Source of the DNA: a virus
Length of the DNA: 64,000 nt
Strand: one strand, 5' to 3'
IMG/VR virus record: IMGVR_UViG_3300042290_000327
Location: 56,716 to 120,715 of that record
Below, piece after piece: positions 30,141 through 57,531 of the stretch. Position 1 is the first letter of the stretch; the number at the start of each line of letters is the position of its first letter. The notes under the pieces were generated by a model. The model was given only the letters and a program-made list of their open reading frames with translations. It did no database searches and had not been told where the DNA came from. Position numbers and translations under genes: made by a program.

Positions 30141-30593
30141 ATGACAGAACCTACCTGGACTTACAAGGGTAGGATGATCACTAAAATTTCCGATATGCCG
30201 GAAGGCACTTACGGATTTATCTACCAGATCACCCACACCCCTACCAACAAAAAATATATCGGCAAGAAAGTCATGTACTTTACCCGGAAGGTTAAGCTCA
30301 CCAAAAAAGAGATCGCCGAACAGACTGGCCCTGGCCGCAAGCCTATCACCAAATTAGTCACCAAAGAAAGTGACTGGGCTAGTTACTACGGATCCAACAA
30401 AGAGTTCTTATCTTTAACCAGAACCTTCCCTAAAGAAGAGTTCCATAAAGAGATTCTAGAGCTTGCTACCGGTAAAAAGATGCTTACCTACTATGAGTGT
30501 AAATATTTATTTAAATACGGTGCCATTGAGAATAACGAGTTATACTACAACGATAACATATTAGGTAAATTCTACAGGAAAGATTTTATATGA
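30141..30593 (+). CDS. GIY-YIG (Seg-like) endonuclease-family protein
   Basis: YGFIYQIT...KKYIGKK...YYGS...KEIL...YN. Confidence 0.8.
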   Translation: MTEPTWTYKGRMITKISDMPEGTYGFIYQITHTPTNKKYIGKKVMYFTRKVKLTKKEIAEQTGPGRKPITKLVTKESDWASYYGSNKEFLSLTRTFPKEEFHKEILELATGKKMLTYYECKYLFKYGAIENNELYYNDNILGKFYRKDFI

Positions 30594-31129
30594 AACTAAT
30601 CCAAGCACTTCTTACTGAGAGCACTTACTCTAAAATTAAAGATGCTTTTAAAGCAGCTGGAGCTACTGATGTAGGAGTAGGATCTCAAGGGGTTGTTTAT
30701 AGTGCACCCAAACCTGTACCGGAATTAGAGTACGAACCTAGAGAAGGGTACCTTGTAAAAATCACCCAGGATGACATCGAAATGGAGGCTATGATTAAAG
30801 CCCAGGGTAAAAAATTTAAATACCTGGCAAACATCGGTAAGGCAGTAAAGATGGAAAAAGGAGGCTGGTACCAAATCGAAAACCTACAGCCGGTCTCTCA
30901 AGAATACTCTGAGGAAATTGAGAAGAACGTTCATATATTAGATCAGTTCTTTAGCGAAGGAGATAAGAGCCTGCTTTCAGACCTATCCCCGTACCTGCAG
31001 AAGGTCTTTATCGGTGCAAGGCAGGAGCTGGTTCAAACCGGCATTGATCCTGAAGAAGTTGATATGTTCGGAGATGACAACAACGTAATGGCAACCGCCG
31101 ATGGTGATATAAAGCTTATCGACTATTAA
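30590..31129 (+). CDS. minimal protein-kinase-like protein with CTS-like leader
   Basis: GVGSQGVVY Gly loop, VKI lysine, D(MFGDD)NNVM catalytic loop, KLIDY. Confidence 0.65.
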   Translation: MKLIQALLTESTYSKIKDAFKAAGATDVGVGSQGVVYSAPKPVPELEYEPREGYLVKITQDDIEMEAMIKAQGKKFKYLANIGKAVKMEKGGWYQIENLQPVSQEYSEEIEKNVHILDQFFSEGDKSLLSDLSPYLQKVFIGARQELVQTGIDPEEVDMFGDDNNVMATADGDIKLIDY

Positions 31130-31186
31130 GTTGGTTACAAGCGGTTTCGTTCTTATATTAAGGTTATAACTATGTAATGCCTCCGC

Positions 31187-32110
31187 ATGGAGAATCCTAT
31201 ACTGCTAAGCGCAATCGAGAACGTACTGGGGAAATCTAATAAGAGGGCCCGGGATAACTATGCATTTAGTTGTCCGTTCTGCAACCATCGCAAACCCAAG
31301 CTTGAGATCAAGCTGAGTACTAACGAGAAGGGGGAGAATCCGTGGGAGTGCTGGGTTTGTAGTGCTAGAGGTAGGACTGTTAAGTCTCTGCTAAGGCAGA
31401 TGAAGCTTGGTAAGGATGAAGCTAACCAGGTCTTAAGACTTGTCAGGAAAGGAGAGACAGCTGACTACGAAGTCACGTTTGTAGAACTTCCTAAAGAGTT
31501 TCAGGCATTGACTACCGCCACCCGGACTTCCGTTATTGCAAACAAGATCAGGAACTACCTCTACAATAGAGGTCTTACCGAGAACGACTTTTTAAAATAT
31601 AACATCGGCTACTGCACCACCGGAGATTATGCTGGAAGAATCATCGTACCTTCATACGATGAAAATAATCAGCTAAACTTTTTCGTTGGCAGGACCTTTG
31701 AGAATAATTATTTTAAGTACAAGAATCCTCCCGCATCCAAGGATGTGATAGGATTTGAGAATTTAATTAACTGGGACCAGCCCGTCATCTTAGTTGAAGG
31801 AGTCTTCGATGCCATGGCTGTTAAACGTAATGCTGTCCCGATCCTAGGTAAGTCCTTATCTAAGAGTTTAATGTTAAAATTAGTGTCAAACAAGGTTCAA
31901 GACATTTATATAGCATTGGATAAAGATGCTTTAAAAAGTGCGCTACGGTACTCTGAGCAATTCCTTGCTATGGGTAAACGAGTGTTCCTTGTTGACATGA
32001 TCGATAAAGATCCTTCACAGATGGGTTTTACTACTTTCACCCACCATATTCAACAGTCCCAGGAGCTGACTTTCAGTGACCTCCTCCGACACAAATTAGC
32101 TTTCGTATGA
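31187..32110 (+). CDS. DNA primase (Zn-binding + TOPRIM)
   Basis: CPFC/CWVC; EGVFDA; ALDKDA; early-type promoter at 31130. Confidence 0.9.
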   Translation: MENPILLSAIENVLGKSNKRARDNYAFSCPFCNHRKPKLEIKLSTNEKGENPWECWVCSARGRTVKSLLRQMKLGKDEANQVLRLVRKGETADYEVTFVELPKEFQALTTATRTSVIANKIRNYLYNRGLTENDFLKYNIGYCTTGDYAGRIIVPSYDENNQLNFFVGRTFENNYFKYKNPPASKDVIGFENLINWDQPVILVEGVFDAMAVKRNAVPILGKSLSKSLMLKLVSNKVQDIYIALDKDALKSALRYSEQFLAMGKRVFLVDMIDKDPSQMGFTTFTHHIQQSQELTFSDLLRHKLAFV

Positions 32111-36689: not shown

Positions 36690-37250
36690 ATGGGAATATT
36701 AGCAGATTTACTACTTACTGAAGAAGAGCAGAATCCAAAACCTAAAGGCAAGCTCTACTGTGATATGGACGGAGTGCTGACAGACTTCGATCAGAGGTTT
36801 GATCACTACTTTGAAATGCTTCCAGCCGAGTATGAAGAACGGAGAGGCAAGGCAGGGTTCTGGAGTGCCATCGCCCCGATCGGGCAGATCTTCTGGGAAG
36901 GAATGGAATGGACCCCTTACGGGAAAGTTTTATGGAAGCACATCCAGGATTTTAACCCTACTTTACTTACCGCTCCTTCATCCGAGCAATCATCCAGAGA
37001 CGGGAAAGTCGAGTGGGCGAATAGAGAACTTGATCCTATCCCTCCTATCATCTTTAGACAAGCTAAAGAAAAGCACCTAGAATGCTCCGGACCCGATGAC
37101 ATCTTGATCGATGACCGGGAAGATACTATCGAGAGATGGAAAGATGCCGGAGGAATAGGAATTTATCACCCCAAGAACGGGGATCCCACCTTAATTATCA
37201 GAAGATTAGAAACACTAGGTTATGTCAAGCCATCTAAAGAAGGAATTTGA
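36690..37250 (+). CDS. HAD-family 5'(3')-deoxyribonucleotidase-like protein
   Basis: YCDMDGVLTDF, LLTAP, K..W and LIDDR motifs. Confidence 0.85.
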   Translation: MGILADLLLTEEEQNPKPKGKLYCDMDGVLTDFDQRFDHYFEMLPAEYEERRGKAGFWSAIAPIGQIFWEGMEWTPYGKVLWKHIQDFNPTLLTAPSSEQSSRDGKVEWANRELDPIPPIIFRQAKEKHLECSGPDDILIDDREDTIERWKDAGGIGIYHPKNGDPTLIIRRLETLGYVKPSKEGI

Positions 37251-37794: not shown

Positions 37795-37814
37795 CTATTT
37801 ATAAAGAAACTTGA

Positions 37815-38744
37815 ATGATTTTAACTGAGTCAAAAGTTACGACAGTACTAACGGAAGGTCTTCGCTACCATTTGCAGACCGGCAATCCTTTATACGAGAA
37901 TATTTACCGTCCAGGGTCAGAGGAATACTTCAACACTATTCGTCAGGCACGTCTGCTTATGAACGAAGGTCTGCTACAGAATCTATGTCTAGAAGATATG
38001 GAGCTTTTGTTTGAAACCCAGGTAGGTGAGTATGCAGAATTCGAAGGTAAAAAAGTACCTTTAGACTTCCCGATGCTAGAGGAGATTACTTTTGTAATCC
38101 CCGACGCTGAAGCAACCTGGCTTCAAGCCTCTACAAATCCTCAGATCTTTAAGATGGGAGAACAGCAGTGGAAAAAGCTTTCTGATATATCCAAAGCGTC
38201 CGGAGGATTCGGATATACTGCAAAGTACTCCGACATCGACCCCGTTATGGAAGATCCGGCAACAGGTGAGCTAGTTACTTTTACTGACAGTGATCAGGTC
38301 CAGATGCCCGTAGTCCTGAAGTACCAGGAGGCAGGAGTAGTAAAGTACGAGATCGTAGTAGGAGAAGATATCCTTCACAGCCTGATTGACTCAGGTACCA
38401 ATCCCGACCCCGATATCTGGGTTGTGGACATTACAAGCGAGGCACTAGCCGAGGCTAAGTACCAGGGCAAGGAAGTAGCTTTGAATAAACCTAAAAGAGG
38501 AGGACCTAAGAAGTTCTTCGTTTACACCCGCAACCCTAAGACCGGCAAAACTATCAAAGTTAACTTCGGAGGCACTACAGGACTGACCGCTAAGATCAAC
38601 AATCCTGAAGCACGCCGTAACTTTGCCAGCCGTCACAACTGCGATCAGAAAAACGATAAAACCAAGCCCGGGTACTGGTCTTGCAGACTCCCAAGGTACG
38701 CCAAGTTGATTGGACTTAAATCAAGCTTTGGTGGTTTCTGGTGA
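37815..38744 (+). CDS. modular head-internal protein candidate with basic C-terminal domain
   Basis: TATTTATA at 37796; LTE/LEE/LAE junctions; C-terminal KKFFVY...VNFG...RRNFASRHNC...YWSC. Confidence 0.7.
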   Translation: MILTESKVTTVLTEGLRYHLQTGNPLYENIYRPGSEEYFNTIRQARLLMNEGLLQNLCLEDMELLFETQVGEYAEFEGKKVPLDFPMLEEITFVIPDAEATWLQASTNPQIFKMGEQQWKKLSDISKASGGFGYTAKYSDIDPVMEDPATGELVTFTDSDQVQMPVVLKYQEAGVVKYEIVVGEDILHSLIDSGTNPDPDIWVVDITSEALAEAKYQGKEVALNKPKRGGPKKFFVYTRNPKTGKTIKVNFGGTTGLTAKINNPEARRNFASRHNCDQKNDKTKPGYWSCRLPRYAKLIGLKSSFGGFW

Positions 38745-38745
38745 T

Positions 38746-39225
38746 ATGATTAAGTTAATAGATCTTATAAAAGAAATAGGAGACTCAAGTTCTCAACCAT
38801 ATAAATTTGATTTTTATGGTGATTATGATGTTATGAGAGTTTATGGATTTTATACTGAAAATTATCCATATACTGTAGAATTACAATATGATGATTTAGA
38901 TTTCTATGACGAGGATACAACTAACGTATTAGGAGTAAGATTCTATGTCTCAGATGAAGATGAACCGGATTTGGAACGAGATGATATTGTAACAAATAAA
39001 GGTGAACTGTTTAGAGTTATGGCAACTGTAACAGCTATTATTAAAAAAGATATTCAAAATCACCCTGAAATTGATACTATAACATTCACCCCATCAAAAA
39101 AAGAAGGTGAAACTGCAAATGTATCTAGATTAAACCTTTACACACGGTATATTAAATATGAATTCCCTAATGCTATTGTAAAACCATATGGTACTAGTGG
39201 TGGTGTAATAGTAAAACTCAAATGA
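38746..39225 (+). CDS. hypothetical protein with leader MIKLIDLIKE (start moved from 38710)
   Basis: ATG 2 nt after the upstream stop; TNKGELFRVMATV...RLNLY; visibly AT-richer than its neighbours. Confidence 0.75.
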   Translation: MIKLIDLIKEIGDSSSQPYKFDFYGDYDVMRVYGFYTENYPYTVELQYDDLDFYDEDTTNVLGVRFYVSDEDEPDLERDDIVTNKGELFRVMATVTAIIKKDIQNHPEIDTITFTPSKKEGETANVSRLNLYTRYIKYEFPNAIVKPYGTSGGVIVKLK

Positions 39226-39506
39226 GACCCTACACTGATCTAGAAGTTACAGACAAATACATCATCCGAGAATTTACCGAAAACATTGACCCAATAGAGT
39301 TAATGTGGCATAGGGACGACGAAGATCGTACTGTAGAACCACTCTGCCCTAGTGATTGGCAGTTCCAAAGAGACAATGAAATGCCCATCCTTCTTAAAGA
39401 GGGTGAAAGGATATTTATTAAGAAACACGAGTGGCATCGGGTCATTAAAGGTTCTGGTCATTTACTTATAAAAATTTTTAAACATGGCAAAGAAAAAGCA
39501 TACTGA
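39222..39506 (+). CDS. cupin-like protein
   Basis: WHRDDEDR...W.FQ...G..IFI...WHRVIKG. Confidence 0.65.
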   Translation: MRPYTDLEVTDKYIIREFTENIDPIELMWHRDDEDRTVEPLCPSDWQFQRDNEMPILLKEGERIFIKKHEWHRVIKGSGHLLIKIFKHGKEKAY

Positions 39507-39747
39507 TAACGAGATTATCGAAGAACTAGTAGCTGTAGCTACCCCGGAGATAACCCCGGAAATCGAATTGACTCCTGTAATTGAAGCAGCTCCTGTAGCT
39601 GTTACTGCCCCGGTTCTTACCCCAGGAGAGTACTACCAGGGAAAAAAGATTGAGAGATACGTCTCCAACCTAGGAAAGAAGGCCGTTGCAATCATCGAGG
39701 GAAAAAGAGTTAAAGTACTCAAAGCGGACGTCGTCAAAGTCAAGTAA
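39484..39747 (+). CDS. hypothetical protein
   Basis: Coupled ORF. Confidence 0.65.
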   Translation: MAKKKHTDNEIIEELVAVATPEITPEIELTPVIEAAPVAVTAPVLTPGEYYQGKKIERYVSNLGKKAVAIIEGKRVKVLKADVVKVK

Positions 39748-39897: not shown

Positions 39898-40071
39898 ATG
39901 CACGCTTTCATGCGTGAGCTACTCCTAGAGGTAATCAAGGAGAAACCCGGACTATGGGCTAACATTAGAGCACAAAGAGCAAGGGGTGAAAAACCATCTC
40001 ACCCTAACTCCAAGGCTTACAAAGATGCTGTTAAGGCTGGAAAAGAGATTCTTAAAAAAGAAAAGAAATGA
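39898..40071 (+). CDS. small basic protein (start moved from 39874)
   Basis: MHAFMRELLLEVIKEKPGLWANI... Confidence 0.65.
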   Translation: MHAFMRELLLEVIKEKPGLWANIRAQRARGEKPSHPNSKAYKDAVKAGKEILKKEKK

Positions 40072-40289
40072 AACTAATAGACCTCCTCTTAGAAGCCAGC
40101 AACCCGGAGGACAAAGTTACTCTGGATATTCCCCTATTCATCAGACTTCTGGAGTACGCGAGAGAAGATGCCCAAGCAGACGTAGACCTACACTTTATAG
40201 CCGATAACGCTATCAGACTCTCCACAGAAGGTGAAACTCTAACAATGGATCATTACGATCAAATCGTCAAGCAAGATGAAGCTAAGTAA
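40068..40289 (+). CDS. small protein with leader MKLIDLLLEA
   Basis: DIPLFIRLLEYARED motif. Confidence 0.75.
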   Translation: MKLIDLLLEASNPEDKVTLDIPLFIRLLEYAREDAQADVDLHFIADNAIRLSTEGETLTMDHYDQIVKQDEAK

Positions 40290-40689
40290 ACTTATCAGCG
40301 AAGCGGAGGTTAAATGTCCTCCCGCAACCCAAGACATCGACCTCAATCTTGAGAACAGACAGAAAGCTATTGACGAATACGGATACGGCCCTGCTGACCC
40401 TTCCCAAAAGAACGAAAAGTTCTGGAAGAAGAAGATGGATATGTGGCAGGTCGATACAGCTGAAGAGCTTAAGAATATGGTATGCGGTACTTGTGCTGCT
40501 TTCGATATCACGACCAAGACCCTAGACTGTATCGCCAAGGGCATCGGATCGGACATGGGTACGGAAGATCCTTACGATGTGATTGATGCCGGTGAGCTAG
40601 GATACTGCAGATTTCTAAAGTTTAAATGCGCAGCCTCTAGAACTTGCGATGCTTGGGTGGTAGGAGGACCGATCAAAGATAAGGAATAA
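40276..40689 (+). CDS. Cys-rich HiPIP-like protein with leader MKLSKLISEA
   Basis: CGTC...GYC-x12-CDAW spacing resembles high-potential iron-sulfur proteins. Confidence 0.55.
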   Translation: MKLSKLISEAEVKCPPATQDIDLNLENRQKAIDEYGYGPADPSQKNEKFWKKKMDMWQVDTAEELKNMVCGTCAAFDITTKTLDCIAKGIGSDMGTEDPYDVIDAGELGYCRFLKFKCAASRTCDAWVVGGPIKDKE

Positions 40690-41156
40690 TGCAAGACCAG
40701 CTCCAGGAGTGGATAAAGTATATCCAGGAGCCTGGCAAGCTTGGCAACGGTCCAATCTGTCCTTATGCCGCTAAAGCAGTCAAAGAGAAGAGAGTAGATA
40801 TAACTGCTCTAACAAACATAGAAGATTTAGAACTGCTAATCGACCGGGTAGATACTACCGAATTCGATGTAAGCATTTTCTATTTTAAGCAGTACACAGA
40901 TTTTACTATAGAGGAGTTGGAGCAGAAGATAAAAGAACTTAACTTTATGTTTAAAGCTAAAGATAAAGTAATCTTAGACAACGATCCTCGCAATCCATTT
41001 ACAGTAAACGGTCATCGAACAACCTTTAATGGGTGTTATTTATATGTAATACAGTCACTCAGTGACCTAACACAGGCGTCTAATAGATTAAAAACAGGAG
41101 ATTACTATTCATACTGGACTCAGGCACAGTATGATGAAGTAGTAGGATGGAGATGA
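40689..41156 (+). CDS. hypothetical protein (CPYA motif, DUF1415-like)
   Basis: W..Y...LG..PICPYA.KA. Confidence 0.6.
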   Translation: MQDQLQEWIKYIQEPGKLGNGPICPYAAKAVKEKRVDITALTNIEDLELLIDRVDTTEFDVSIFYFKQYTDFTIEELEQKIKELNFMFKAKDKVILDNDPRNPFTVNGHRTTFNGCYLYVIQSLSDLTQASNRLKTGDYYSYWTQAQYDEVVGWR

Positions 41157-41617: not shown

Positions 41618-42688
41618 ATGAAGCTGCAGGAAAGCGACTTAGGGGACCTTATTCTTCATGCGACTAACTCGGAAACCGTTGAAGATTTTCTAAAAAAAGT
41701 AAAAGACGATAAACTAATAAGCAATCTCTCCACTAAAGAACTTAAAGATTTTTATAAGGAAAATAGAAATGTAGCTAAAAAAAAATCAAAGATGAATAAA
41801 GAAGCTATTTTAAAAGCCATTAAAGAAGTACTGACTGAAAAGAAAGCTACATATTGCGGAAGATGCGGACATACTCACGTCAAAGGAACCCCTTGCCCAA
41901 GACCTTTCAAAGAAGGGTTATCAACTTACGGCGATGATGCCTATTTCGTAGCACCAAACAAAGGAAAGATGAAAAAAGAAGATATTTTAAAAGCTATTAA
42001 AGAAGTGTTAACTGAAGTTGAGGTCACTGTAATAAGTGATCCAGAATCAAAAAAACGGGCAAAAGAAGCAGCAATGAGAGCTGGTGTAGCAAACCCTGAC
42101 TTTTTAAAGCAAATTGATAATGCTCAAAAAGGAGACACAATTACAGCCGAAGAAGCTATGATTCCTTCAGATGATCGAGTTAGTTATCTTGAAATTGCAT
42201 TAGGGCGTGTTTGGAATATGGGTCGTGGCAATAATAAGATTGATTTAAACTCAATGGCTCAAGAATTAGTTAACGATATGTTTGCTGAATCGTTAGATGA
42301 AGATTTAGACCTAGGACATGAGGATCACGAACCGCATATGATTAAATCAGAGCTTTACCAGATCGCAAAATACGCTATCGAGCTTTATAAGATGGTAGAC
42401 CAGTTTGACAGTGAGGCTGAAGTTGATTTTCCAGCCTGGTGGCAGTCTAAAATCACAAAAGCAAACTCAATGGTTAGCAGCGCCAAGCACTACCTTGAAT
42501 TTGAACTAGCTAAACCTGCAATGGATCAGGCTTTGGCAGAAGAAAAAAAAGCTAAAGAACTAGACCCGGTCGGTCATGAAGATGAAGATATCGACAACGA
42601 CGGCAAAGTAGACAAGACTGATAAGTACCTCAAAGGTAGAAGAGTTAAGATCGGCGCAGCAATCGCCCAGCATTCTAAGAAGAAATGA
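41618..42688 (+). CDS. modular head-internal protein candidate (duplicated ILKAIKEVLTE, Zn knuckle, EF-hand-like tail)
   Basis: MNKEAILKAIKEVLTE / MKKEDILKAIKEVLTE; CGRCGHTH; DEDIDNDGKVDKTDKYL. Confidence 0.7.
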   Translation: MKLQESDLGDLILHATNSETVEDFLKKVKDDKLISNLSTKELKDFYKENRNVAKKKSKMNKEAILKAIKEVLTEKKATYCGRCGHTHVKGTPCPRPFKEGLSTYGDDAYFVAPNKGKMKKEDILKAIKEVLTEVEVTVISDPESKKRAKEAAMRAGVANPDFLKQIDNAQKGDTITAEEAMIPSDDRVSYLEIALGRVWNMGRGNNKIDLNSMAQELVNDMFAESLDEDLDLGHEDHEPHMIKSELYQIAKYAIELYKMVDQFDSEAEVDFPAWWQSKITKANSMVSSAKHYLEFELAKPAMDQALAEEKKAKELDPVGHEDEDIDNDGKVDKTDKYLKGRRVKIGAAIAQHSKKK

Positions 42689-44317: not shown

Positions 44318-44659
44318 ATGAACAAATTACAATCAATTATCACAGTTATTGCAGTTGCACTAGCAATCCTTATGTTCACAGGTTTACTAAACCCTTACAA
44401 GAAAAAGTACTTGACTGAATTGAAGGCAGTAAGAGAGGCATCTGAAGCAAGAGAAGATTCTTTGAAGACGGTCGTTTTCTCTTTAGAGAATGAGGCACTA
44501 AGACTTCAAAACAGAGCCGACTCTACCCTCAAAGCATTAGAAGGAGAAGAAACAAAACGTAAAAAAGAAAGAGATGAATTCAATAAAAGGATGGCTGAGC
44601 TTAGCAAGCTTTCTACTGCTGAGCTTGCCCGCTATTTCGCAGAGCGTTATAGTCGTTAA
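44318..44659 (+). CDS. i-spanin-like membrane-anchored coiled coil
   Basis: N-terminal TM segment plus coiled coil; overlaps the next gene. Confidence 0.55.
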   Translation: MNKLQSIITVIAVALAILMFTGLLNPYKKKYLTELKAVREASEAREDSLKTVVFSLENEALRLQNRADSTLKALEGEETKRKKERDEFNKRMAELSKLSTAELARYFAERYSR

Positions 44660-48506: not shown

Positions 48507-49361
48507 ATGAAAATTAAGCATTCGAAGTATAAAAACACAGGCCTTATTTTTGAGCTGTTGGTGAAGCAAATTGCTGCCGACACTCTATCGAGGAAAGACT
48601 CCCCGGCCGTGAAGGTACTCAAGAAGTTCTACACAGGTAAAACATCGCTAGTTAGAGAGTTCAAGCTTTACGAATACATCCTTAAGAACAAAGGAGTATC
48701 CCAGCCCAAAGCCGACACCATCGTCTCCACTATCATCGAGATCTCAAACAAGTTAGATAGAACAGCTATCAAGAAGCAGAAGTACGATCTTATCAAAGAG
48801 ATCAAAGAGTCTTACGACCTAGAGGAGTTCTTCTCAATGAAGGTCCGGGACTACAAGCCGCTGGCTGCTCTGTACTGCTTGATGGAGACTCAAAGCTCTG
48901 AAGATCTTGCCGATCCTAAGTTCATCGTCGATAACAGAGTTACTATTCTAGAGCACTTGACTGCTAAGAAGCAAAACGAAGACGATGTTAAGGATGCGAT
49001 GATCGAAGAGTTTTCAAAGTACGATAAGGATTTAAGATTACTTACTTACAAGATTCTCCTGGAGAAGTTTAACGGAGAGTATGAAAATTTCCTACCTCAG
49101 CAGAAAGATATCCTTAGAGAGTTTATCACCGCTTCTGAGTCACAGGTCAAGCTTAGGAATATGATCAACGAGGAGCTAGAGAAAATTTCTATAGAAGTTA
49201 ATGCTCTTACCCCTAAGGTCAAAGACGAGATTATTAAGATCAAGATCGACGAAGTTCAAAAGCTTATCAAGCCTTTGGATAAGAAGACCCGGATTGATGA
49301 CAATCACATCGTCAATCTCCTTCAGTACTATGAACTTGTTAACGAGCTAAAGACTTTATGA
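48507..49361 (+). CDS. head-module protein (prohead core candidate)
   Basis: Lies between portal and protease; TATTTATA at 48480. Confidence 0.7.
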   Translation: MKIKHSKYKNTGLIFELLVKQIAADTLSRKDSPAVKVLKKFYTGKTSLVREFKLYEYILKNKGVSQPKADTIVSTIIEISNKLDRTAIKKQKYDLIKEIKESYDLEEFFSMKVRDYKPLAALYCLMETQSSEDLADPKFIVDNRVTILEHLTAKKQNEDDVKDAMIEEFSKYDKDLRLLTYKILLEKFNGEYENFLPQQKDILREFITASESQVKLRNMINEELEKISIEVNALTPKVKDEIIKIKIDEVQKLIKPLDKKTRIDDNHIVNLLQYYELVNELKTL

Positions 49362-49576
49362 AAAAGCATAAATTCACCGAGCTCCTCAGAGAACTTATCC
49401 TAGACCGGCTCAGCGAGATGAACGTCACCGGAGCGATAGGAGCGCCCCAAACCCCTTACGCTTTTTCGAAAGGGAAAAAAGACAACAGAGCCGTCACCGC
49501 AATGAAGAGCTTTGGTTACACTAAGACAGAGAGACCAAAGAGACCTTCCAACACTAAATTGTTTGATTTCAGATGA
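49358..49576 (+). CDS. small head-module protein
   Basis: LLRE/LSE leader followed by TGAIGAPQTPYAF. Confidence 0.7.
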   Translation: MKKHKFTELLRELILDRLSEMNVTGAIGAPQTPYAFSKGKKDNRAVTAMKSFGYTKTERPKRPSNTKLFDFR

Positions 49577-50880
49577 AAACACTACAAGAAAAATATAATG
49601 CTATTTTAGAAGGAAACTTCTCTAAAGTACAATTCGTAAGAGATGCTAGACTAGCACACTCTAACCTCATTACCCAATTCAACAGCTTTGCAGACACCGT
49701 CGCTATCCTTAAGAACAAGGGGATGGTGGTAGAGGCTAAGAAAGCTGAAGTAACAGCTTACAAGAAGCCAGAAGTAGATCCTATCGACATGGTTGCACCG
49801 GATCTTTTGGATCACGGTATTGAAGCCGAGCTTCATGCTGCAGGCATCACCGGTACTCCTTCAGAAGAAGAGTACGCAAAAGCAAAAGAGAAAGCTGCTA
49901 AAGAGCTTATCAAAGATCCTCTTTGCTACAAGAACGCCCAGACCATGACCGAACCCGGTGAGAAGATGGAGAAAGCAAAGCTAAGTGAAGAGACTGCTCT
50001 AGACAGGGTTGAGAGAAACGCTTCTAGCAAAGTTCAAGATAAGCTAGGAGATATTGCTGATACAGTAGCTGAGAAACCAGCCTCCGTAGGAGCAGCTTTT
50101 AGAAAAAAAGTGCTTGCAAATCCTACACACTACGTTAAGATGTCTGCTCACGAACTTAAAAAAGAGTTTAACAAGTTTAAGCTTGAAGAGGGGTACGAAG
50201 ATGAAGAGGAAGGATCTGGTTATTCGTACGAGTATAAAGAAGGTGACGGTGCATCTGAAAAGGAAATACAAGGAAATATAGACCACTATAAGAAAAATCC
50301 TTTGATTTGGAAAATGCAGGCAAAAAAAGATTTTGAAAATATGGCAGCTGGTGAGTCGGCTGATACAAAAACTGAACACTATCCAGAGTGGAAGAAGGAA
50401 GATTTTGAGAAAGTACTTAAAGCCCTTGCAGAGAGTCCAAACATGAGTGAAGATGACGTTAACGAACCCGGTATCGATCCTCGAAGAACCACCACTACTG
50501 ATTACGATTCATCTGCGAAACAAAAAGAAGACGGCACTTACGATATTTCAGGAACGATGAATGTACCCCGGCTCGAAGAAGGCGACGGTGCACCGGAGGA
50601 GGAACTTGAAAAACACATTATGGAGTTTGATATCTATAAAAATTCGTTAAAGAATAGTGGTAAACACGCTTATAATACAAAATTAAAAGATTTTAAAGAT
50701 CTTGCAGCTGGTAAATTAGGTGATATAAAAGACCAGCTCTTTCCCTCGTGGAAGAAAGAAGATTTCGCTAAAATAATTAAAGACCTTCCAGGTCCTTTTC
50801 TACTAGAATCTAACTCGCAGCAAGAAACCCAGCTCAAAGAAGCAGTAAAGTCTTTAATTAAGAAGACTCTAGAATCATAA
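49573..50880 (+). CDS. head-internal polyprotein candidate with duplicated modules
   Basis: MKTLQE start; two EGDGA...DF...AAG...P.WKKEDF repeats; LSE/LEE/LLE/LKE junctions. Confidence 0.75.
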   Translation: MKTLQEKYNAILEGNFSKVQFVRDARLAHSNLITQFNSFADTVAILKNKGMVVEAKKAEVTAYKKPEVDPIDMVAPDLLDHGIEAELHAAGITGTPSEEEYAKAKEKAAKELIKDPLCYKNAQTMTEPGEKMEKAKLSEETALDRVERNASSKVQDKLGDIADTVAEKPASVGAAFRKKVLANPTHYVKMSAHELKKEFNKFKLEEGYEDEEEGSGYSYEYKEGDGASEKEIQGNIDHYKKNPLIWKMQAKKDFENMAAGESADTKTEHYPEWKKEDFEKVLKALAESPNMSEDDVNEPGIDPRRTTTTDYDSSAKQKEDGTYDISGTMNVPRLEEGDGAPEEELEKHIMEFDIYKNSLKNSGKHAYNTKLKDFKDLAAGKLGDIKDQLFPSWKKEDFAKIIKDLPGPFLLESNSQQETQLKEAVKSLIKKTLES

Positions 50881-50882: not shown

Positions 50883-51461
50883 ATGGCAAATCTCTTAATT
50901 GAATATACCCCTTTCCGTCCTACGATCACCGAGTCCGTAAAAAGACCCGGTATCTTCGAGGTTGTGGGTGTTATGCAGAGAGCCAATGCCAAGAACCAAA
51001 ACGGAAGGATCTACGAAAAAGACATCCTTGCAAGAGAGGTCAAGAAGTACATGGAAGCTTTCGTTAAGGTGGGTAATGCATACGGGGAGTTAGATCACCC
51101 GGAATCACCTATCGTCTCACTAAAAAATGCTTCCCACGTGGTGAAGGATCTTTGGTGGGATGGAGATAACCTAATGGGTAAGGTTGAGTTACTGAACACC
51201 CCAGCTGGCAACATCGTGAAAGAAATCATCAAGGGCGGTCATACGATCGGTATCTCTTCAAGAGGCACAGGCTCAGTCCAGCCCATCGGTGAGAATACCT
51301 TAATGGTGAAGGACGACTTCGAACTTGTGTGTTGGGATTTCGTATCGAATCCCTCCACTCACGGAGCATTTTTAAACCCCGTCTCCTTAAATGAGGTAAA
51401 GCAGGTAGTAGATCCTTACGCCCGGCTTCACAACATCATAGGTGACATTCTTAGAGCGTAA
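50883..51461 (+). CDS. prohead core protease (T4 gp21-like)
   Basis: NQNGRIY, GELDHP, GISSRGTGS and DFVSNPS motifs. Confidence 0.95.
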   Translation: MANLLIEYTPFRPTITESVKRPGIFEVVGVMQRANAKNQNGRIYEKDILAREVKKYMEAFVKVGNAYGELDHPESPIVSLKNASHVVKDLWWDGDNLMGKVELLNTPAGNIVKEIIKGGHTIGISSRGTGSVQPIGENTLMVKDDFELVCWDFVSNPSTHGAFLNPVSLNEVKQVVDPYARLHNIIGDILRA

Positions 51462-51481: not shown

Positions 51482-51775
51482 ATGAACAATTTCGATTTAA
51501 AAAAATTCTTAGTAGAGAACAAACTCACTACTAACTCTAAGGCGCTAAGTGTAAACGAAGCGGCCGAAATGAAAGACGGGGAATACATGGTTGACGGAAA
51601 ACAGGTAAACTTTGATTCTATTGAACTAGGTAAAGACGACTTTGGAAACGGACTAGAGTGGTTCATCGATAAGGCCACCTTTGTTGACGGAACCGAACTA
51701 ACCCCAGATCAGCTAGAAGAGCTAACCGACCTATACTACCCTAACGGTAGACACGTATCCATGGAGGATATGTAA
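51482..51775 (+). CDS. hypothetical protein with leader MNNFDLKKFLVEN
   Basis: ATFVDGTELTPDQLEEL. Confidence 0.75.
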   Translation: MNNFDLKKFLVENKLTTNSKALSVNEAAEMKDGEYMVDGKQVNFDSIELGKDDFGNGLEWFIDKATFVDGTELTPDQLEELTDLYYPNGRHVSMEDM

Positions 51776-52290: not shown

Positions 52291-53667
52291 ATGGCTAACA
52301 AAGATTTATTTAAGCAGGCTATCGCCGACGCTAAATCAATTCGTGAAGCTGCTATCGCTAACGCAAAACTTGCTTTGGAAGAGTCTCTTACTCCTCAACT
52401 TAAAGAGCTTTTAGCTCAACGTCTCACAGAGATGGAAGAAGAGGATGCACCCACCACCGTTATTTCTGAAGAAGAAGTAGCTGAGGAGGTTCAAGAAGAG
52501 ACCCTTGAAGAAGCAATCGGAGCGGAAGAGGAGCACTCAGAAGAAGGTGAAGTAGAAGGAGATGAAGCCGGCGAAGAAGCTGAGGTTGATTCTGAAGAAT
52601 CAGAAGACGAGGCTGAAGAAGAGGTAGGAGAGATGAGTGTTGAAGACCTTAAGGACTTGATCCGGGACGTACTTATGCAAGTAATGGGCGACCAGGAACA
52701 AGGAGAAGAGGACGAATTAGAAGCCGACGCTATGGACATGACGGGAGATGATATGACAGCTGTAACTGATACAGAAATCAATATCGACGAACTTATGGCC
52801 GAGCTAGCGACTCTTAACAACCCCCAGGGACTTACAGCACACGGTAACGTTGCAGAAGTAGAAGAAGCAGCTGATCCTCTTAGAGAATCAGCAATTGCCG
52901 AACTAAAGAAGCATATGAAGCCCGGAACTATGGAAGGTATGAGAACATATGCTGAAGCAAAAGGCATGGACGTTCATGAAGTCCTAGGAAAGATGGTTGA
53001 ATACGGAACTACCGCTGAAGTTAAGAAAGTCGCTGAACTGATGGGAGTTGCTGAAGCCTTGGGCGAAGCTGCTTACCACAGAATAATGGAAAGACTAACT
53101 TCCGAGATGAAGCACGCTCCAGAAATGGAAGAGAACGTCATGGCAGATCTAGCTATTTTCTCAGCTCAAAACCCAGAGCAAGTAATGGCAGCTATTTTAG
53201 CAGCTGTTCCCGCTCTTGCTGCTGCCGGAATGGGAGTTGAAAAGATCGTTCAAAAAATCAGAGGCGGAGCAAAAGACGCAGCGAAAGCTGGCGAAGAAGC
53301 TCCTACTGCCGACGACCTTATGGAAGCTCTATCAACCATCGAAACTCTTCGAAACGATTTAAACGAGACTAACTTGCTTAACGCTAAGTTACTCTACGTC
53401 AATAAAGTTTTTAAAGCCAGCAACCTATCTGAATCGCAGAAAGCCAGCGTCATTGCTGCTTTTGATAAAGCCGAGACAGTGAAGGAAGTGAAGCTAGTAT
53501 ACGAAACAGTTAGTGAAAATGTTTCTTCTGTAGGTAAGAAAGAAGTAGTGAGGGAAGCCAAGGGCTTTGCCTCTGCTGCTGCAGGAATCTCTACCAAACC
53601 AGGAGTAATCACAGAAACTAACCAGGCTGTATTGCGTATGCAAAAACTTGCAGGAATTATTAAATAA
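52291..53667 (+). CDS. prohead scaffolding/core protein (start moved to MANKDLF)
   Basis: Acidic coiled coil immediately upstream of the capsid gene; many LxE sites; C-terminal RMQKLAGI. Confidence 0.85.
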   Translation: MANKDLFKQAIADAKSIREAAIANAKLALEESLTPQLKELLAQRLTEMEEEDAPTTVISEEEVAEEVQEETLEEAIGAEEEHSEEGEVEGDEAGEEAEVDSEESEDEAEEEVGEMSVEDLKDLIRDVLMQVMGDQEQGEEDELEADAMDMTGDDMTAVTDTEINIDELMAELATLNNPQGLTAHGNVAEVEEAADPLRESAIAELKKHMKPGTMEGMRTYAEAKGMDVHEVLGKMVEYGTTAEVKKVAELMGVAEALGEAAYHRIMERLTSEMKHAPEMEENVMADLAIFSAQNPEQVMAAILAAVPALAAAGMGVEKIVQKIRGGAKDAAKAGEEAPTADDLMEALSTIETLRNDLNETNLLNAKLLYVNKVFKASNLSESQKASVIAAFDKAETVKEVKLVYETVSENVSSVGKKEVVREAKGFASAAAGISTKPGVITETNQAVLRMQKLAGIIK

Positions 53668-53684: not shown

Positions 53685-55271
53685 ATGGAATTAAACACTC
53701 TTTTAAACGAATCAGCTCAAGGCTTTAAGTCTTTGCAAGCTGACGCCGGTAGACTCGCTGACAAGTGGTCTGCAACCGGTCTTCTTGAGGGTCTATCAAA
53801 CGACATCGACAAGAACAACATGGCTATGGTGCTTGAAAACCAAGCCAAGCAAATCATCAAGGAAGCTAACGCTACCGGAGGCGGTGCCATCGGTACTGCT
53901 ACAGGTAATGCTGAGCAGTGGGCTGGTGTAGCTTTGCCACTTGTAAGAAAGGTATTCGCTCAAATCGCTGCTAAAGATTTCGTATCTGTACAGCCTATGA
54001 ACCTTCCTTCAGGTCTGGTTTTCTACCTTGACTTTAAGTACGGTAACAATGCTAACGGCTTTACTGCCGACAGCAATATGTACGGTAACGTATCAACTGC
54101 CAACAGCAAAATCGGCGTTGACACTGAAGTAGCTGGAGGCCTTTACGGTGCCGGTCGCTTTGGATACACCATCAACTCAGCTTCTTTAGCTATCACTCAG
54201 TCTACTGGTGCTGCTACTTCAGCTTCTATCGCTTATCAAGACGGCATTCTGCCTGCTTCATACAAGACTGTAACTGTTAGTATGAGTGGTCTTTCTGCTG
54301 ATCTAAAAGGTGCAAGAGCTTTCCGCCTGATTTCTGGTTCAACCGACGTAACTACTAACCCAGAACTTACTACTGTATCTGGTAACAACGTTATCTTCGT
54401 AGTATCTGGTTCTGCCCTTACCGTAACTGCCGAGATCACAGGATCAGTTATGTACCACAAGCAGCCTACTGACAACACGAGAGGTGACTTCGAATTCACT
54501 GGCGGTGCTGGAGACACTACTCCTGCTATCCCAGAGATCAACGTATCCCTAGCTTCTGAAGCTATTGTTGCTAAGACTCGTAAGTTGAAGGCTCAATGGT
54601 CACCAGAATTCGCTCAGGACTTGAACGCTTACCACAGCATCGACGCTGAGGCCGAGTTGACTTCAATGCTTTCTGAGTACATTTCTATGGAGATCGATCT
54701 CGAGCTTCTTGACATGCTTATCCAAGACGCAGTTACTACTGAGCGTTGGTCAGCTGAGAACAACAAGATTTGGAACGGTACTAACTGGACCACTTCTACT
54801 TCAGATTTCTACAACACACAAGGTCAGTGGTTCCAAACCCTCGGTACTAAAGTACAGAAGGTATCCAACAAGATCCACCAGAAGACTTTGCGTGGAGGTG
54901 CTAACTTCCTAGTAGTTTCTCCAACTGTTGCAACTATCCTCGAGTCAATCCCAGGATATGCTGCTGACACAGACGGCGACAAAATGGATTTTGCAATGGG
55001 CGTTCAGAAAGTAGGTCAACTTAACAGCCGCTACCGCGTCTACAAGAACCCATACATGACTGAAAACGTAATCCTTATGGGCTACAGAGGTTCACAGTTC
55101 CTAGAGACAGGAGCCGTTTACGCTCCTTACATTCCTCTTATGATGACACCTTTGGTGTACGATCCACAGAACTTCTCACCAGTGAAAGGTATCATGACTC
55201 GTTACGCTAAGAAGATGGTTCGTCCAGAATTCTACGGTAAGATCTTCGTCTCTGACGTAGCTACTATCTAA
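53685..55271 (+). CDS. major capsid protein (T4 gp23-like)
   Basis: LLEG, LENQ, PLVRKV, VQPMNLPSGLVF, AKTRKLKA.WS.E.AQDL, YAPYIPL, KGIMTRY. Confidence 0.97.
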   Translation: MELNTLLNESAQGFKSLQADAGRLADKWSATGLLEGLSNDIDKNNMAMVLENQAKQIIKEANATGGGAIGTATGNAEQWAGVALPLVRKVFAQIAAKDFVSVQPMNLPSGLVFYLDFKYGNNANGFTADSNMYGNVSTANSKIGVDTEVAGGLYGAGRFGYTINSASLAITQSTGAATSASIAYQDGILPASYKTVTVSMSGLSADLKGARAFRLISGSTDVTTNPELTTVSGNNVIFVVSGSALTVTAEITGSVMYHKQPTDNTRGDFEFTGGAGDTTPAIPEINVSLASEAIVAKTRKLKAQWSPEFAQDLNAYHSIDAEAELTSMLSEYISMEIDLELLDMLIQDAVTTERWSAENNKIWNGTNWTTSTSDFYNTQGQWFQTLGTKVQKVSNKIHQKTLRGGANFLVVSPTVATILESIPGYAADTDGDKMDFAMGVQKVGQLNSRYRVYKNPYMTENVILMGYRGSQFLETGAVYAPYIPLMMTPLVYDPQNFSPVKGIMTRYAKKMVRPEFYGKIFVSDVATI

Positions 55272-55357: not shown

Positions 55358-56044
55358 ATGTCCTCAAATCATCATGAAGACGAAGTCTTCAAAGCAAAGA
55401 GACGTCCAAAGAATCCTATCAAGTTTAACATCACGTTAAACGAAGAGCAGAAGGCCGCCAAAGAAGTAATTCTAAGTAACCCCGTAACAGTATTAAGAGG
55501 TATGGCCGGTAGCGGTAAGACCTTGGTGGCTGTACAGACGGCGTTAGACCTGCTCTTTACCGGACAGGTGGAGAAGATTATCATCACCCGGCCTACGGTC
55601 TCTAAAGAAGATATCGGTTTTCTACCCGGTGATATCAGAGAAAAGATGGACCCGTGGCTTGCCCCGATCTACCACAACCTATACCTGCTATACGATAAGG
55701 TGAAAGTCGACCGTGAGGTAGAAGATGGAAGGATAGAGATTCTACCCTTTGCGTTTATGAGAGGTAGGACATTTATCAATGCATTTGTGATTGTAGATGA
55801 AGCCCAGAACGTAACCCACACCCAGATGGAGATGGTGCTAGGAAGACTAGGTAAGAACAGCTGGATGTCCATATGCGGGGATCTAGCCCAGATCGACCTC
55901 AAGACCAAAAAAGAGACAGGTCTTTCATTTTTAACCCGGGTCGAAGAGCAGGTTAAGGGCGTACGTGTTGTTACACTTAAACAGAACCACAGACACCCAA
56001 TCGTTGAGCCGATCTTAAAGGTATACGAGACCTTTAGAGATTGA
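55358..56044 (+). CDS. phoH: PhoH-like ATPase
   Basis: GMAGSGKT, ITRP, GFLPG, MRGRTF, DEAQN, GDLAQIDL. Confidence 0.95.
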   Translation: MSSNHHEDEVFKAKRRPKNPIKFNITLNEEQKAAKEVILSNPVTVLRGMAGSGKTLVAVQTALDLLFTGQVEKIIITRPTVSKEDIGFLPGDIREKMDPWLAPIYHNLYLLYDKVKVDREVEDGRIEILPFAFMRGRTFINAFVIVDEAQNVTHTQMEMVLGRLGKNSWMSICGDLAQIDLKTKKETGLSFLTRVEEQVKGVRVVTLKQNHRHPIVEPILKVYETFRD

Positions 56045-56077
56045 ACTGTCACTGCTATTTATATTTAAACTGTAGAC

Positions 56078-57220
56078 ATGGCAGATATTCAGATTTGGAA
56101 CGGAACTTCTAACTTTTCAGCTGGTCAAACTCCATTCGGTTTCTACGACACCGATACTGAGTTTGTTACTGATGCTAACAGAGTTGCTAAGTTCTGTGGC
56201 CAGAGACTAGGCTACCCTTTGATGGATGTAGAGCTGCAGTCAGGATCATTCTTTGCCTGCTTTGAAGAAGCAGTAACAACTTACGGCAACGAAGTATTCC
56301 AGTATAAAGTTAGAGAGAACTACCTCTCGATGGAAGGAGCCTCAAAAGCAGGAAGCTTTAACAATACTTTGATCCAGCCAACCTTAGGAAGGGTGATGGA
56401 GATCACTGAAAACTACGGAACTGAAGCAGGAGTAGGAGGAAACGTAACTAAGTACACCGGTTCGCTTTACGTCTCGGGCGGGGTACAGGTTTATGACTTA
56501 GATCAATGGGCTACAGCTCAAGGAATCACCGGAGGAATAGAGATTAGAAGAGTTTTCTTCGAAGCACCACCAGCAATCCTGCGTTACTTTGATCCTTACG
56601 CCGGTACGGGCACAGGCATCCAATCACTTATGGATGCATTTGACTTCGGATCATACTCTCCCGGTATTAACTTCCTGTTAATGCCCGCATACTACGATCT
56701 TTTAAAGGTTCAAGCTATTGAACTTAATGATCAGATCAGAAGATCAGCTTACACATTTGAACTTATCAACAATAAGCTAAGACTCTTCCCGGTCCCCAAG
56801 ACGGACGGCTATATGATGTTCGAATATTTTAAGACAGATGATAGAAGAGCTGCAGTTTCCGGCTCCGGGGCTAACCTGATTACCAATATAGGGGAAGTTC
56901 CTTACGGTAACCCTACTTATGAAGGCATCAATTCAGTAGGCAGACAGTGGATATACAAATATACCTTAGCTCTATCTAAAGAATTGCTAGGATATATCCG
57001 GGGAAAGTACCAGCAAATCCCAGTTCCGGGGTCAAACACTGCTTTAAACCAGGCTGACCTGCTTTCGGATGCAAGGACAGAAAAAACCGAACTACTTACC
57101 CAGCTCAGAGATATGCTTGAGCAAACCTCCAGACGCAATCAGTTAGAGAGAAAGGCCAACGAAAGTGAATTTATTAAAACAACACTTCAGAGTGTGCCGC
57201 TAACTATTTTTGTAGGATGA
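56078..57220 (+). CDS. neck protein (gp13-like adaptor)
   Basis: RLGYPLMDVEL; WIYKYTLAL.KELLG..RGKY. Confidence 0.75.
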   Translation: MADIQIWNGTSNFSAGQTPFGFYDTDTEFVTDANRVAKFCGQRLGYPLMDVELQSGSFFACFEEAVTTYGNEVFQYKVRENYLSMEGASKAGSFNNTLIQPTLGRVMEITENYGTEAGVGGNVTKYTGSLYVSGGVQVYDLDQWATAQGITGGIEIRRVFFEAPPAILRYFDPYAGTGTGIQSLMDAFDFGSYSPGINFLLMPAYYDLLKVQAIELNDQIRRSAYTFELINNKLRLFPVPKTDGYMMFEYFKTDDRRAAVSGSGANLITNIGEVPYGNPTYEGINSVGRQWIYKYTLALSKELLGYIRGKYQQIPVPGSNTALNQADLLSDARTEKTELLTQLRDMLEQTSRRNQLERKANESEFIKTTLQSVPLTIFVG

Positions 57221-57531
57221 TACTGCTAGAAGAACTTTTAAGTGAGGTAGAATTCAGGATGTACAAGACTTATGTCTATGTAGAGTTCAATCCTGATACC
57301 GACATTACTACCATCGCCCAGCTAATCAGAAGCGTAGACAAGGTCGCAGTCGTGAATAACAAATCTAATAAGGAGGATGACAGACCAAGGGGTCTGCTAT
57401 TGATAAAAATTATCACCACTAAGCCAGCCCTTGAGACCTTCCAGGAATTACAAAGAGCTGCAATGACTACAATCCCTGACCTAAAAAAATTCCAATTCTC
57501 TGAACGTCACATCGAGCAATCTGAGATATGA
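57217..57531 (+). CDS. hypothetical protein with leader MILLEELLSE
   Basis: Coupled ORF. Confidence 0.7.
   Translation: MILLEELLSEVEFRMYKTYVYVEFNPDTDITTIAQLIRSVDKVAVVNNKSNKEDDRPRGLLLIKIITTKPALETFQELQRAAMTTIPDLKKFQFSERHIEQSEI

Follow-up and report, generated by a model that had tools for sequence, protein, structure and literature searches.

In bacteriophage T4, the internal proteins (IPs) IPI, IPII and IPIII and the protein Alt each begin with a capsid targeting sequence (CTS), an N-terminal leader of 10 to 20 amino acids that ends in Phi-x-Glu, where Phi is a hydrophobic residue, as set out in the available parts of the published accounts (PMC3012670, PMC5694885, PMC9026906). A comparable set of leaders is present in the last 64 kb (64,000 nucleotides, hereafter the window) of IMG/VR virus record IMGVR_UViG_3300042290_000327, a single 120.7-kb contig with nearly all genes on the + strand. 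Roughly 15 to 20 unrelated proteins carry an N-terminal tag ending in Leu/Ile-x-Glu. Judging from their sequences, these short leaders probably are T4-type capsid-targeting propeptides belonging to several portable families, a reading to which we assign a probability of about 60%. The source virus is a distant T4-like phage of the Flavobacterium-phage type. Its nearest named relative, Flavobacterium phage vB_FspM_immuto (hereafter immuto), shares about 69% nucleotide identity with it across the scaffold and capsid genes, and the two phages are syntenic through the whole region.

The likeness to T4 extends to the surrounding genes. Both phages encode a gp21-family S77 protease within the order portal, small core genes, protease, scaffold and capsid, and in both the leader is common to otherwise unrelated, poorly conserved proteins and gives the same statistical signature. 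In Alt, T4 also offers a known enzyme-type cargo. There are also differences from T4, since at least four leader families are found here instead of one, and one of these is a 24-residue module that occurs on at least 21 metagenomic body types. Acidic proteins make up most of the putative cargo, to which a mini kinase and a deoxyribonucleotidase would also belong, and most of the tagged genes are clustered between tail-fibre and terminase genes.

Giant phages provide a second point of comparison. In phiKZ, 201phi2-1 and SPN3US, a diverged gp21-like protease likewise processes many head-internal proteins after Glu, some diverged paralogs begin with identical N-termini, and the propeptides are thought to target the prohead, as far as the available sections of one report indicate (PMC5694885). 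The same sections describe S/A/G-x-E sites and propeptides mostly longer than 100 residues (PMC5694885), whereas the leaders described here end in L/I-x-E after 5 to 25 residues, which is the T4 pattern. The T4 literature, in the portions available, already proposes the CTS as a means of loading varied proteins (PMC9026906). Our literature search found no such tag set described outside the T-even and giant phages, and multiple tag families, enzyme cargo of this kind and mimicry of scaffold ends were not found described in that search.

More distant parallels are functional in nature. Encapsulin cargo-loading peptides are short terminal peptides that load unrelated enzymes into a shell of the HK97 fold, and this functional analogy is closest in immuto, where a C-terminal motif of the scaffold serves again as a leader. 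Encapsulin tags differ in that they usually stand at the C-terminus, no protease removes them, and they serve a shell that contains no DNA and injects nothing. The Dar proteins of phage P1 and other head-packaged anti-restriction proteins are accessory proteins delivered with the DNA, and we know of no common cleavable L/I-x-E leader on any of them.

A Glu-specific motif at the N-terminus

A preliminary description of this DNA proposed that a leader ending in (L/I)-x-E recurs on about 20 unrelated proteins, and all 16 of the N-termini that it quoted were recovered as written. The motif was scored as [LI]-x-E with Glu at residues 5 to 13 in a set of 161 genes, which our own open reading frame (ORF) caller gave for the whole genome. 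It is present in 37 of the 161 genes. The expected count is 17.7 when derived from internal windows (368/3353), 19.9 +/- 3.7 when residues 2 to 15 are shuffled within each protein, and 21.6 +/- 3.7 when columns are shuffled, and the observed number was reached by 0 of 2000 shuffles in each of the two shuffle tests. Among 14 x 14 residue classes at spacings of 0 to 3, (L/I)-x-E was the top outlier with substantial counts (z 4.7).

The preference for Glu is pronounced. In the first 25 residues, [LI][LI]xE is 3.8 times and [LI][LI]xE[SAGE] 7.1 times commoner than in the remainder of the proteins, whereas the corresponding ratio for [LI][LI]xD is 1.0, showing that Asp is not equivalent to Glu. Four of the five proteome-wide occurrences of [LI]TES are N-terminal. 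This contrast between Glu and Asp matches the T4 CTS rule, under which Asp at position 10 blocks processing according to the available part of one source (PMC9026906).

The motif is also unevenly distributed along the genome. With corrected starts for two genes, 19 of the 35 genes between 30590 and 57531 have the motif, compared with 19 of the 126 genes elsewhere (Fisher odds ratio 6.7, p = 6e-6, for a region that was picked post hoc in the preliminary description). Those 126 genes serve as a control for host translation effects. The counts are 6 of 31 in the small-ORF cassette (1 to 12400), 4 of 22 in the baseplate and fibre block (12401 to 30589), and 7 of 68 in the genome upstream of the window. 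Within the region, the motif Glu peaks at residues 6 to 20 (6.9, 6.3 and 4.0% of residues, against a background of 1 to 2%), and [LI]xD has no N-terminal peak there. BLASTP comparisons among 22 tagged proteins found similarity at E <= 0.01 in 0 of 231 pairs.

Thus, the motif observation is confirmed and is more structured than was first seen: the leader is real, N-terminal, Glu-specific and common to unrelated proteins, it is commoner than in shuffled sequences and in early-cassette genes, and the early cassette and baseplate block lack enrichment, all as had been suggested. The earlier list of cases needs some pruning. Its overall pattern stands, and some of the cases that it listed or that can be counted are probably chance matches or other helices, such as exonuclease 32107, which has no N-terminal extension relative to its PHROG family, and the gene at 18554.

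Three control genomes were scored in the same manner. In immuto, where the starts used agree with the GenBank annotation wherever they were compared, 36 of 207 genes score against 24.0 +/- 4.0 expected (7 of 2000 shuffles reach the count), and the hits are concentrated in the syntenic block (17/37 versus 19/170). In T4, the positive control, 45 of 270 genes score against 32.5 +/- 4.7 (10/2000), and the excess over chance of 13 to 17 can be compared with the 10 scoring proteins among 12 gp21-substrate or head-internal proteins examined (ipII, ipIII, alt, 67, 68, 21, 22, 24, inh and gp2). The two misses are ipI, with its site at residue 19, and gp23, with its site at residue 65. The CTS proteins of T4 thus score in the same test, and because this test recovers known head proteins, the N-terminal excess approximates the number of true head-targeted proteins. 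T5 was used as a negative control, since it has another type of head protease and no S77; 18 of its 150 genes score against 14.2 +/- 3.2 (308/2000), and the ratio of N-terminal to body rates of the motif is 1.0. The suggestion that the tagged set extends well beyond that of T4 was overstated, given an excess of about 15 to 19 here against about 13 to 17 in T4, although the tagged share of genes is about twice as high (about 10% versus about 5%). Two T4 N-termini can be recorded alongside these counts: gp61.1 (NC_000866, 18966 to 19130) starts with MKTFKEFIKE, which is close to the IP leader, and the head-internal DNA end protector gp2 (gene 2, NC_000866, 76061 to 76885) starts with MAIFQIINE/S, where the slash here and below follows the Glu of the site.

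Several leader families on unrelated proteins

The leaders are portable, but they do not form the single common leader of the preliminary description. At least four distinct families were found (F1 to F4), and each of them is present on bodies without BLAST similarity to one another. Genes are named below by their first coordinate in the window and immuto proteins by identifiers that begin with I.

F1: M(N/E)NFDLKKFLVENKLTxNSK; on 51482 and four immuto proteins of 99 to 333 amino acids.
F2: MKKSQLRQIIKE-like; on 49358, 42685, possibly 18554, and four immuto proteins.
F3: M(I)KLIxxLLTES-like; on 12485, 30590, 38746, 40068, 40276 and immuto I24569.
F4: MKKQILSEQFKRMQxLAGIITES; on two immuto proteins.

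F1 provides the clearest case. The leaders of 51482 and immuto I118632 are identical at 18 of 19 residues and differ in 11 codons, and a peptide that is fixed despite so many codon differences excludes a nucleotide-level signal or recent gene conversion. As judged from these codons, selection demonstrably acts on the leaders at the protein level. A search for longer proteins that share words with 51482 gave 53 metagenomic matches, and a stricter pattern places F1 at the N-terminus of 50 of these. The bodies of the 50 proteins form 21 clusters, including one with an HD domain, and a Pfam search of 10 of the tagged proteins found a domain in only one (HD). When 51 F1 proteins were aligned on a looser anchor, column entropy was low through L-x-E and then rose to 3.2 to 3.9 bits, and [LIVM]xE ends at anchored columns 20 to 22 in 47 of the 51. 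Because the matches were found via the leader, its conservation is partly by construction, but the position of the boundary is not. The conservation therefore defines a 24-residue module that ends exactly at the putative cleavage site.

F3 gave no sign of being portable in the way that F1 is when IMG/VR was scanned with a degenerate DNA pattern (MK[LF]I..LLTE). Of the 29 loci recovered, 15 belong to the kinase family of 30590, two to another body of 76 amino acids, and 12 are ORFs of 10 to 58 amino acids that are probably chance matches. Eight F3-type tagged proteins, a post hoc grouping, contain 6 internal [LI]xE sites against 12.8 expected from composition. Only the leader of 49573 (MKTLQEKYNAILE) looks like the T4 IP leader MKTYQEFIAE; the other families share its pattern and not its sequence.

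Most of the tagged genes reside in a block at 30.6 to 44.3 kb, between tail-fibre genes and terminase, that holds a primase (31187), a PD-(D/E)XK exonuclease (32107), a deoxyribonucleotidase (36690) and otherwise mostly proteins without function. Pfam and PHROGs gave no function assignment for most tagged proteins. The tagged genes are as follows.

30590 to 31129, + strand: mini protein-kinase-like protein, 179 amino acids; leader MKLIQALLTE/S (F3).
36690 to 37250, + strand: 5'(3')-deoxyribonucleotidase of the haloacid dehalogenase (HAD) type; leader MGILADLLLTE/EEQNPKPKGK before the DMDGV motif.
37815 to 38744, + strand: protein of 309 amino acids; leader MILTE/SKVTTVLTE/G; in its C-terminal part it shows homology to immuto I101270, whose own leader reads MIRLQE.
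38746 to 39225, + strand: protein of 159 amino acids; leader MIKLIDLIKE/I (F3), with the near-identical MIKLIDLLTES on immuto I24569; the ATG start lies inside an ORF for which TTG 38710 is another possible start.
39484 to 39747, + strand: protein of 87 amino acids; MAKKKHTDNEIIE/E; weak candidate.
40068 to 40289, + strand: protein of 73 amino acids; leader MKLIDLLLE/A (F3).
40276 to 40689, + strand: protein of 137 amino acids; leader MKLSKLISE/A.
40689 to 41156, + strand: protein of 155 amino acids; MQDQLQE/WIKYIQE/P; weak candidate; PHROG 10325, function not known.
41618 to 42688, + strand: repeat protein of 356 amino acids; weak leader MKLQE/S; upstream half of an 841-residue immuto protein.
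42685 to 43254, + strand: protein of 189 amino acids; leader MKLNKLKDIIQE/AYFEVL (F2).
43254 to 44309, + strand: protein of 351 amino acids; leader MDLVDKIIKE/W; the immuto ortholog has KIVIE, with Val at P3.
49358 to 49576, + strand: basic protein of 72 amino acids with a predicted mature isoelectric point (pI) of 10.3; leader MKKHKFTELLRE/L (F2); in the position of T4 gp67/68.
49573 to 50880, + strand: head-module protein of 435 amino acids; leader MKTLQEKYNAILE/G; both sites (E6, E13) are kept in the immuto ortholog.
51482 to 51775, + strand: protein of 97 amino acids directly after the protease; F1 leader beginning MNNFDLKKFLVENKLTTNSK.
57217 to 57531, + strand: protein of 104 amino acids; leader MILLEELLSE/V; a weaker case, the immuto ortholog having LVNE with Val at P3.
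12485 to 12895, + strand: protein of 136 amino acids outside the 30590 to 57531 region; leader MKLISALLQE/S (F3).
202 to 543, + strand: protein of 113 amino acids; MKELLLKEIQNVIAE/ATKVNFKG; the immuto ortholog has QILSE/VTKVNFKG, so that Phi-x-E directly precedes a conserved body.
18554 to 19027, + strand: protein of 157 amino acids; MKASEFKEIIKE/AVREAI (F2-like); uncertain, in the baseplate module; the motif is conserved in immuto I81525, and the leader could be an ordinary helical N-terminus.

The content of this set varies between the two phages. No immuto homolog was found for eight tagged genes (12485, 12895, 30590, 38746, 39484, 40068, 40276 and 40689), and at the corresponding loci immuto carries tagged genes of its own, including five consecutive ones between the ortholog of 30141 and the primase. 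Genes 41618 and 42685 together correspond to the single immuto protein I114006 of 841 amino acids (immuto record 114006 to 116531). From its residue 4, the 42685 protein aligns to an internal stretch of I114006 (675 to 792), and the gene boundary consequently sits right at the leader, with the split located about 10 residues before the IIQE/A site of 42685. A processing site that turned into a gene boundary and a helix that is native to the domain would fit this arrangement equally well. The protein (41618 to 43254 in the window) also contains repeated modules, a zinc-ribbon-like stretch (CGRCGHTHVKGTPCPRP) and a calcium-site-like stretch (DxDxDGxxD). In the ESM Atlas, 43254 matched only viral hypothetical or unnamed clusters, and single-protein locus searches with 30590 and 43254 recovered only close relatives at 82 to 99% identity, which are uninformative for leader conservation.

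The head module and a promoter-like motif

The module has a T4-like order, beginning with the large terminase (44990), the gp20 portal (46598) and three genes without assigned function, followed by the S77 protease, a pair of small genes, then an acidic scaffold-like protein and finally the capsid protein gp23 (53685). Four of its features bear on the proposed processing.

50883 to 51461, + strand: gp21-type prohead serine protease, 192 amino acids; PF03420 Peptidase_S77, E=8.9e-32, above the curated cut-off; PHROG 207, E=2.9e-50.
53685 to 53864, + strand: predicted capsid propeptide, residues 1 to 60, MELNTLLNE...QIIKE/ANATGG; Pfam Gp23, E=5.8e-82 for the whole gene (53685 to 55271).
52291 to 53667, + strand: acidic scaffold-like protein with 15 [LI]xE sites; the likely start is ATG 52291 and not GTG 52267.
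48507 to 49361, + strand: head-module protein of 284 amino acids between portal and protease, with 13 [LI]xE sites (45.8 per 1000 amino acids).

The assignment of a gp21-type S77 protease to 50883 was borne out by the PF03420 match and by alignment with T4 gp21 of its His (GELDHP) and Ser (GISSRG) motifs. This His and Ser (residues 85 and 140) are presumably the catalytic residues. The protein has Phi-x-E sites of its own at LIE7, ITE17/S and a C-terminal SLNE. Among 120 close homologs, 116 have Phi-x-E-S before a [KR]PG anchor near the N-terminus, and all have SLNE near the C-terminus; more than 7900 proteins match the protease at E <= 1e-20. Such N- and C-terminal sites match what is described or suspected for gp21 in the available part of one source (PMC9026906).

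When the capsid protein is aligned with gp23 and gp24 of T4, its QIIKE60/ANATGG coincides with FLTE65/A, the known site of gp23; immuto has QIVSE/AN at this position, and the string IIKEA is also the core of several leaders. The density of sites in the scaffold-like protein is 32.8 per 1000 amino acids, compared with 13.6 genome-wide and 59.5 in T4 gp22. The protein 48507, which has no Pfam or PHROG match, is a candidate for a core protein that is degraded at maturation.

Two of the leader families have a member in the head module, F1 (51482) and F2 (49358), and the look-alike of F4 is the scaffold C-terminus, RMQKLAGIIK. The scaffold ends in ...LRMQKLAGIIK (53629 to 53667) and its immuto counterpart in ...SRWQKLAGIIK, so the motif is conserved in both phages. 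It is reused as the N-terminal leader MKKQILSEQF[KR]RMQ[FK]LAGIITES of two unrelated immuto proteins (record 25061 and 111675), in which the scaffold-end motif is followed by ITE/S. This suggests that tags may arise by copying the part of the scaffold that would anchor it in the prohead.

Structural and tagged genes might also be expressed together. The word TATTTATA, often in the form CTATTTATA[AT]A, occurs 28 times on the + strand and twice on the - strand, where about 5 would be expected. One promoter-like copy is located as follows.

37796 to 37803, + strand: one of the 28 + strand TATTTATA motifs, promoter-like.

Other + strand copies start at 142, 12468, 16310, 18543, 32892, 41368, 46574, 48480, 52187, 56056, 59523 and 61581, among further positions. 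The word lies mostly 11 to 80 nucleotides upstream of the portal, scaffold and neck genes and of the downstream genes 59556 and 61642, and it also precedes several tagged genes or their operons, at distances of 19 nucleotides for 37815, 17 for 12485 and 60 for 202; for 48507 the distance is 27 nucleotides. The reverse complement of TATTTATA is TATAAATA, the late-promoter word of T4, and that word is found only twice on the + strand. The placement of TATTTATA fits late co-expression of structural and tagged genes, and it may be the late promoter.

Two enzyme-like proteins with leaders

The kinase-like call for 30590 and the nucleotidase call for 36690, both made in the preliminary description, hold. 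For 30590, an AlphaFold 2 model has a predicted local distance difference test (pLDDT) score of 89.3, with residues 1 to 9 below 50. Foldseek returned 46 PDB matches at E<=1e-3 with template modelling (TM) scores of 0.37 to 0.49, and among the matches listed all are Ser/Thr-type protein kinases. The G-rich loop, the Lys, the catalytic-loop Asp/Asn and the DFG-like Asp are conserved in the family, and K70, D158, N165 and D178 are invariant. Pfam returned 0 families for this protein, and in the ESM Atlas only a cluster at rank 23 gave a lead, with PF27024 (Phage_T7_kinase) on 17% of its members. The protein may represent a minimal phage kinase family with a fold of about 165 residues and relatives in uncultured phages. 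Among homologs at about 35 to 40% identity, some keep MKL[IV]xxLLxE (P0134, P0141 and P0143) and others lack it (P0137, P0139 and P0142). A complex prediction for the protease with full-length 30590 scored 0.01 against a mark of 0.32, and since it was run without controls it counts neither way.

For 36690, the match to PHROG 2643 (E=7e-22) begins at residue 19, and D25, D27, G28 and V29 of the DxDGV motif do not vary among 35 sequences; homologs carry precomputed PF06941 assignments, and the Pfam HAD match of the protein itself is below cut-off. Among 120 listed homologs, those down to about 41% identity keep an extension of 17 to 34 residues with Phi-x-E before the DMDGV motif, and the most distant ones lack it. 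Of the named phages, the T4-like immuto, Methylophilales phage Melnitz and Pelagibacter phage HTVC008M have the extension, and six others (OLIVR1, phiXF1, Cr30, RsoM2USA, Atu_ph07 and Phosso) do not. In the AlphaFold 2 model, the first 20 residues have pLDDT values of 64 and 74, compared with 97 in the core. For the two proteins examined, 30590 and 36690, the modelled leader is an appendage outside the fold.

Proposed capsid targeting and its alternatives

If the leaders are T4-type propeptides, the tagged proteins would be made late, alongside the head proteins, and the hydrophobic, amphipathic part of each tag would bind the assembling prohead core, with some tags copying the termini of the scaffold or of small core proteins. 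After closure of the shell, the S77 gp21-type protease would cut after Phi-(Phi)-x-Glu and free the mature protein inside the head. Some substrates (scaffold 52291 and 48507) would be core components that are chopped up and lost, whereas others, such as 30590, 36690 and about ten small proteins, would be folded proteins that remain inside the head and pass into the host along with the DNA. The sequence analysis itself establishes the motif, its position and Glu specificity, its portability, the protein-level selection, its location outside the folded domains, the protease gene and the matching capsid site; we infer core binding, cleavage, presence in the virion and injection.

Several observations weigh against capsid targeting and must be accounted for. 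Chance alone would yield about 4 to 5 of the region's 19 hits. The strict-window motif is kept in only 9 of 18 reciprocal-best immuto pairs whose member here has it; the non-keeping pairs that were inspected have a shifted site or Val at P3. The leader of 42685 corresponds to an internal, well-aligned part of an immuto protein, with Met at P3, and may belong to the domain. The tagged set as a whole shows no avoidance of internal sites (34 observed, 34.7 expected). Of the predicted mature parts, 13 of 19 are acidic (pI 4.1 to 5.8), unlike the basic T4 IPs, and a pI of 7.9 or more is predicted only for 49358, 51818, 39484, 202, 18554 and 12485. Several tagged genes stand among replication-type genes (primase 31187 and exonuclease 32107), and deoxyribonucleotidase is normally a cytoplasmic enzyme. 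Cr30 and RsoM2USA encode S77 and yet have leaderless nucleotidases, a finding that is compatible with head targeting without lending it support. Our literature search found no virion proteome for this phage or immuto.

Among the alternatives, it is rather unlikely that the tags are true propeptides on proteins that serve only as assembly components or prohead enzymes and are then degraded or expelled, leaving no injected library. Such a fate would suit the acidity of most mature parts, a property shared with scaffold and core proteins, together with the dense sites of 48507 and the scaffold and the resemblance of tags to scaffold termini, and most T4 core proteins do leave the head according to the part available of one account (PMC9026906). 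It is harder to reconcile with 30590 and 36690, compact enzymes with 0 internal [LI]xE sites (2.2 and 2.4 expected), as fits a single releasing cut, or with content that is hypervariable between relatives, as in the T4 IPs. We consider it improbable that the leaders address something else, such as a replication or nucleotide-metabolism hub, the GroEL/GroES encoded by the phage itself, the membrane or an N-terminal degron, with the likeness to gp21 sites being a partial overlap. Tagged genes are indeed interleaved with primase, exonuclease and nucleotidase genes, the phage does encode GroES and GroEL, and no physical tie to the capsid was found for the proteins from outside the head module. Nevertheless, the same leader families occur on head-module and other tagged proteins, the strict bias towards Glu and away from Asp, together with the abrupt end of F1 conservation at L-x-E, points to a protease with Glu at P1, and the excess is found in T4 and not in T5.

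Chance, composition, or translation-start or nucleotide bias (AT-rich K, L, I and E codons in a host without Shine-Dalgarno sequences), together with paralogs, is a very improbable source of the pattern. These residues are common in N-termini, about 11 to 13% of genes are hit by chance, and some listed cases are not conserved in immuto. This explanation is largely refuted by the failure of all 2000 composition-keeping shuffles to reach the observed count, by the lack of enrichment in the other 126 genes or T5, and by the facts that Asp is no substitute for Glu, that synonymous codons vary under a fixed peptide, and that the bodies are unrelated (0/231 pairs).

A broader reading of the capsid-targeting proposal is tentative. 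Distant T4-like marine phages might run a modular system of cargo loading, in which each phage combines several portable tags, all closing with a Phi-x-Glu site for the protease, with a hypervariable cassette of 15 to 20 proteins that are co-injected. In such a system, some portable tags may have been copied from the head core, as in the case of the scaffold motif RMQKLAGII, and a minimal kinase of the Ser/Thr type and a deoxyribonucleotidase could be among the cargo, joined in relatives by an HD hydrolase. Delivery of most tagged proteins into the host as effectors is plausible, with a probability of about one in three.

Proteins that are injected with the DNA act before phage genes are expressed and thus are prime candidates for roles in counter-defence and host takeover. 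Such proteins have been described in just a few model phages. If the leaders do mark such proteins, injected proteins could be listed from sequence by their tags across a very large environmental clade with thousands of uncultured phages, unexpected cargo such as the mini kinase and the nucleotidase would be revealed, and natural tags would be at hand with which foreign proteins could be packaged in non-coli phages. The recurrence of a scaffold end among the tags would likewise suggest a route by which new cargo is recruited.

Additional observations

A gene for a PhoH-like ATPase (55358 to 56044) separates the capsid gene from that of the neck protein (head-tail adaptor). GroES-like and GroEL-like proteins of 98 and 544 amino acids are encoded at contig positions 13671 to 15598, outside the window, and immuto likewise encodes both. 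GC skew is strongly positive (0.15 to 0.24) over the small-ORF cassette (window 1 to 12000) and about zero or negative afterwards. The minus strand, otherwise almost empty, has an ORF of 349 amino acids with a TTG start at 62420 to 63469 that was not picked by the codon-usage caller. Another ORF with a TTG start, of 144 amino acids, is found among glycosyltransferase genes at contig positions 44621 to 45055, outside the window; it has ...DRLITES at residues 16 to 22, and its body, with 9 sites, is denser in [LI]xE than any other in the genome.

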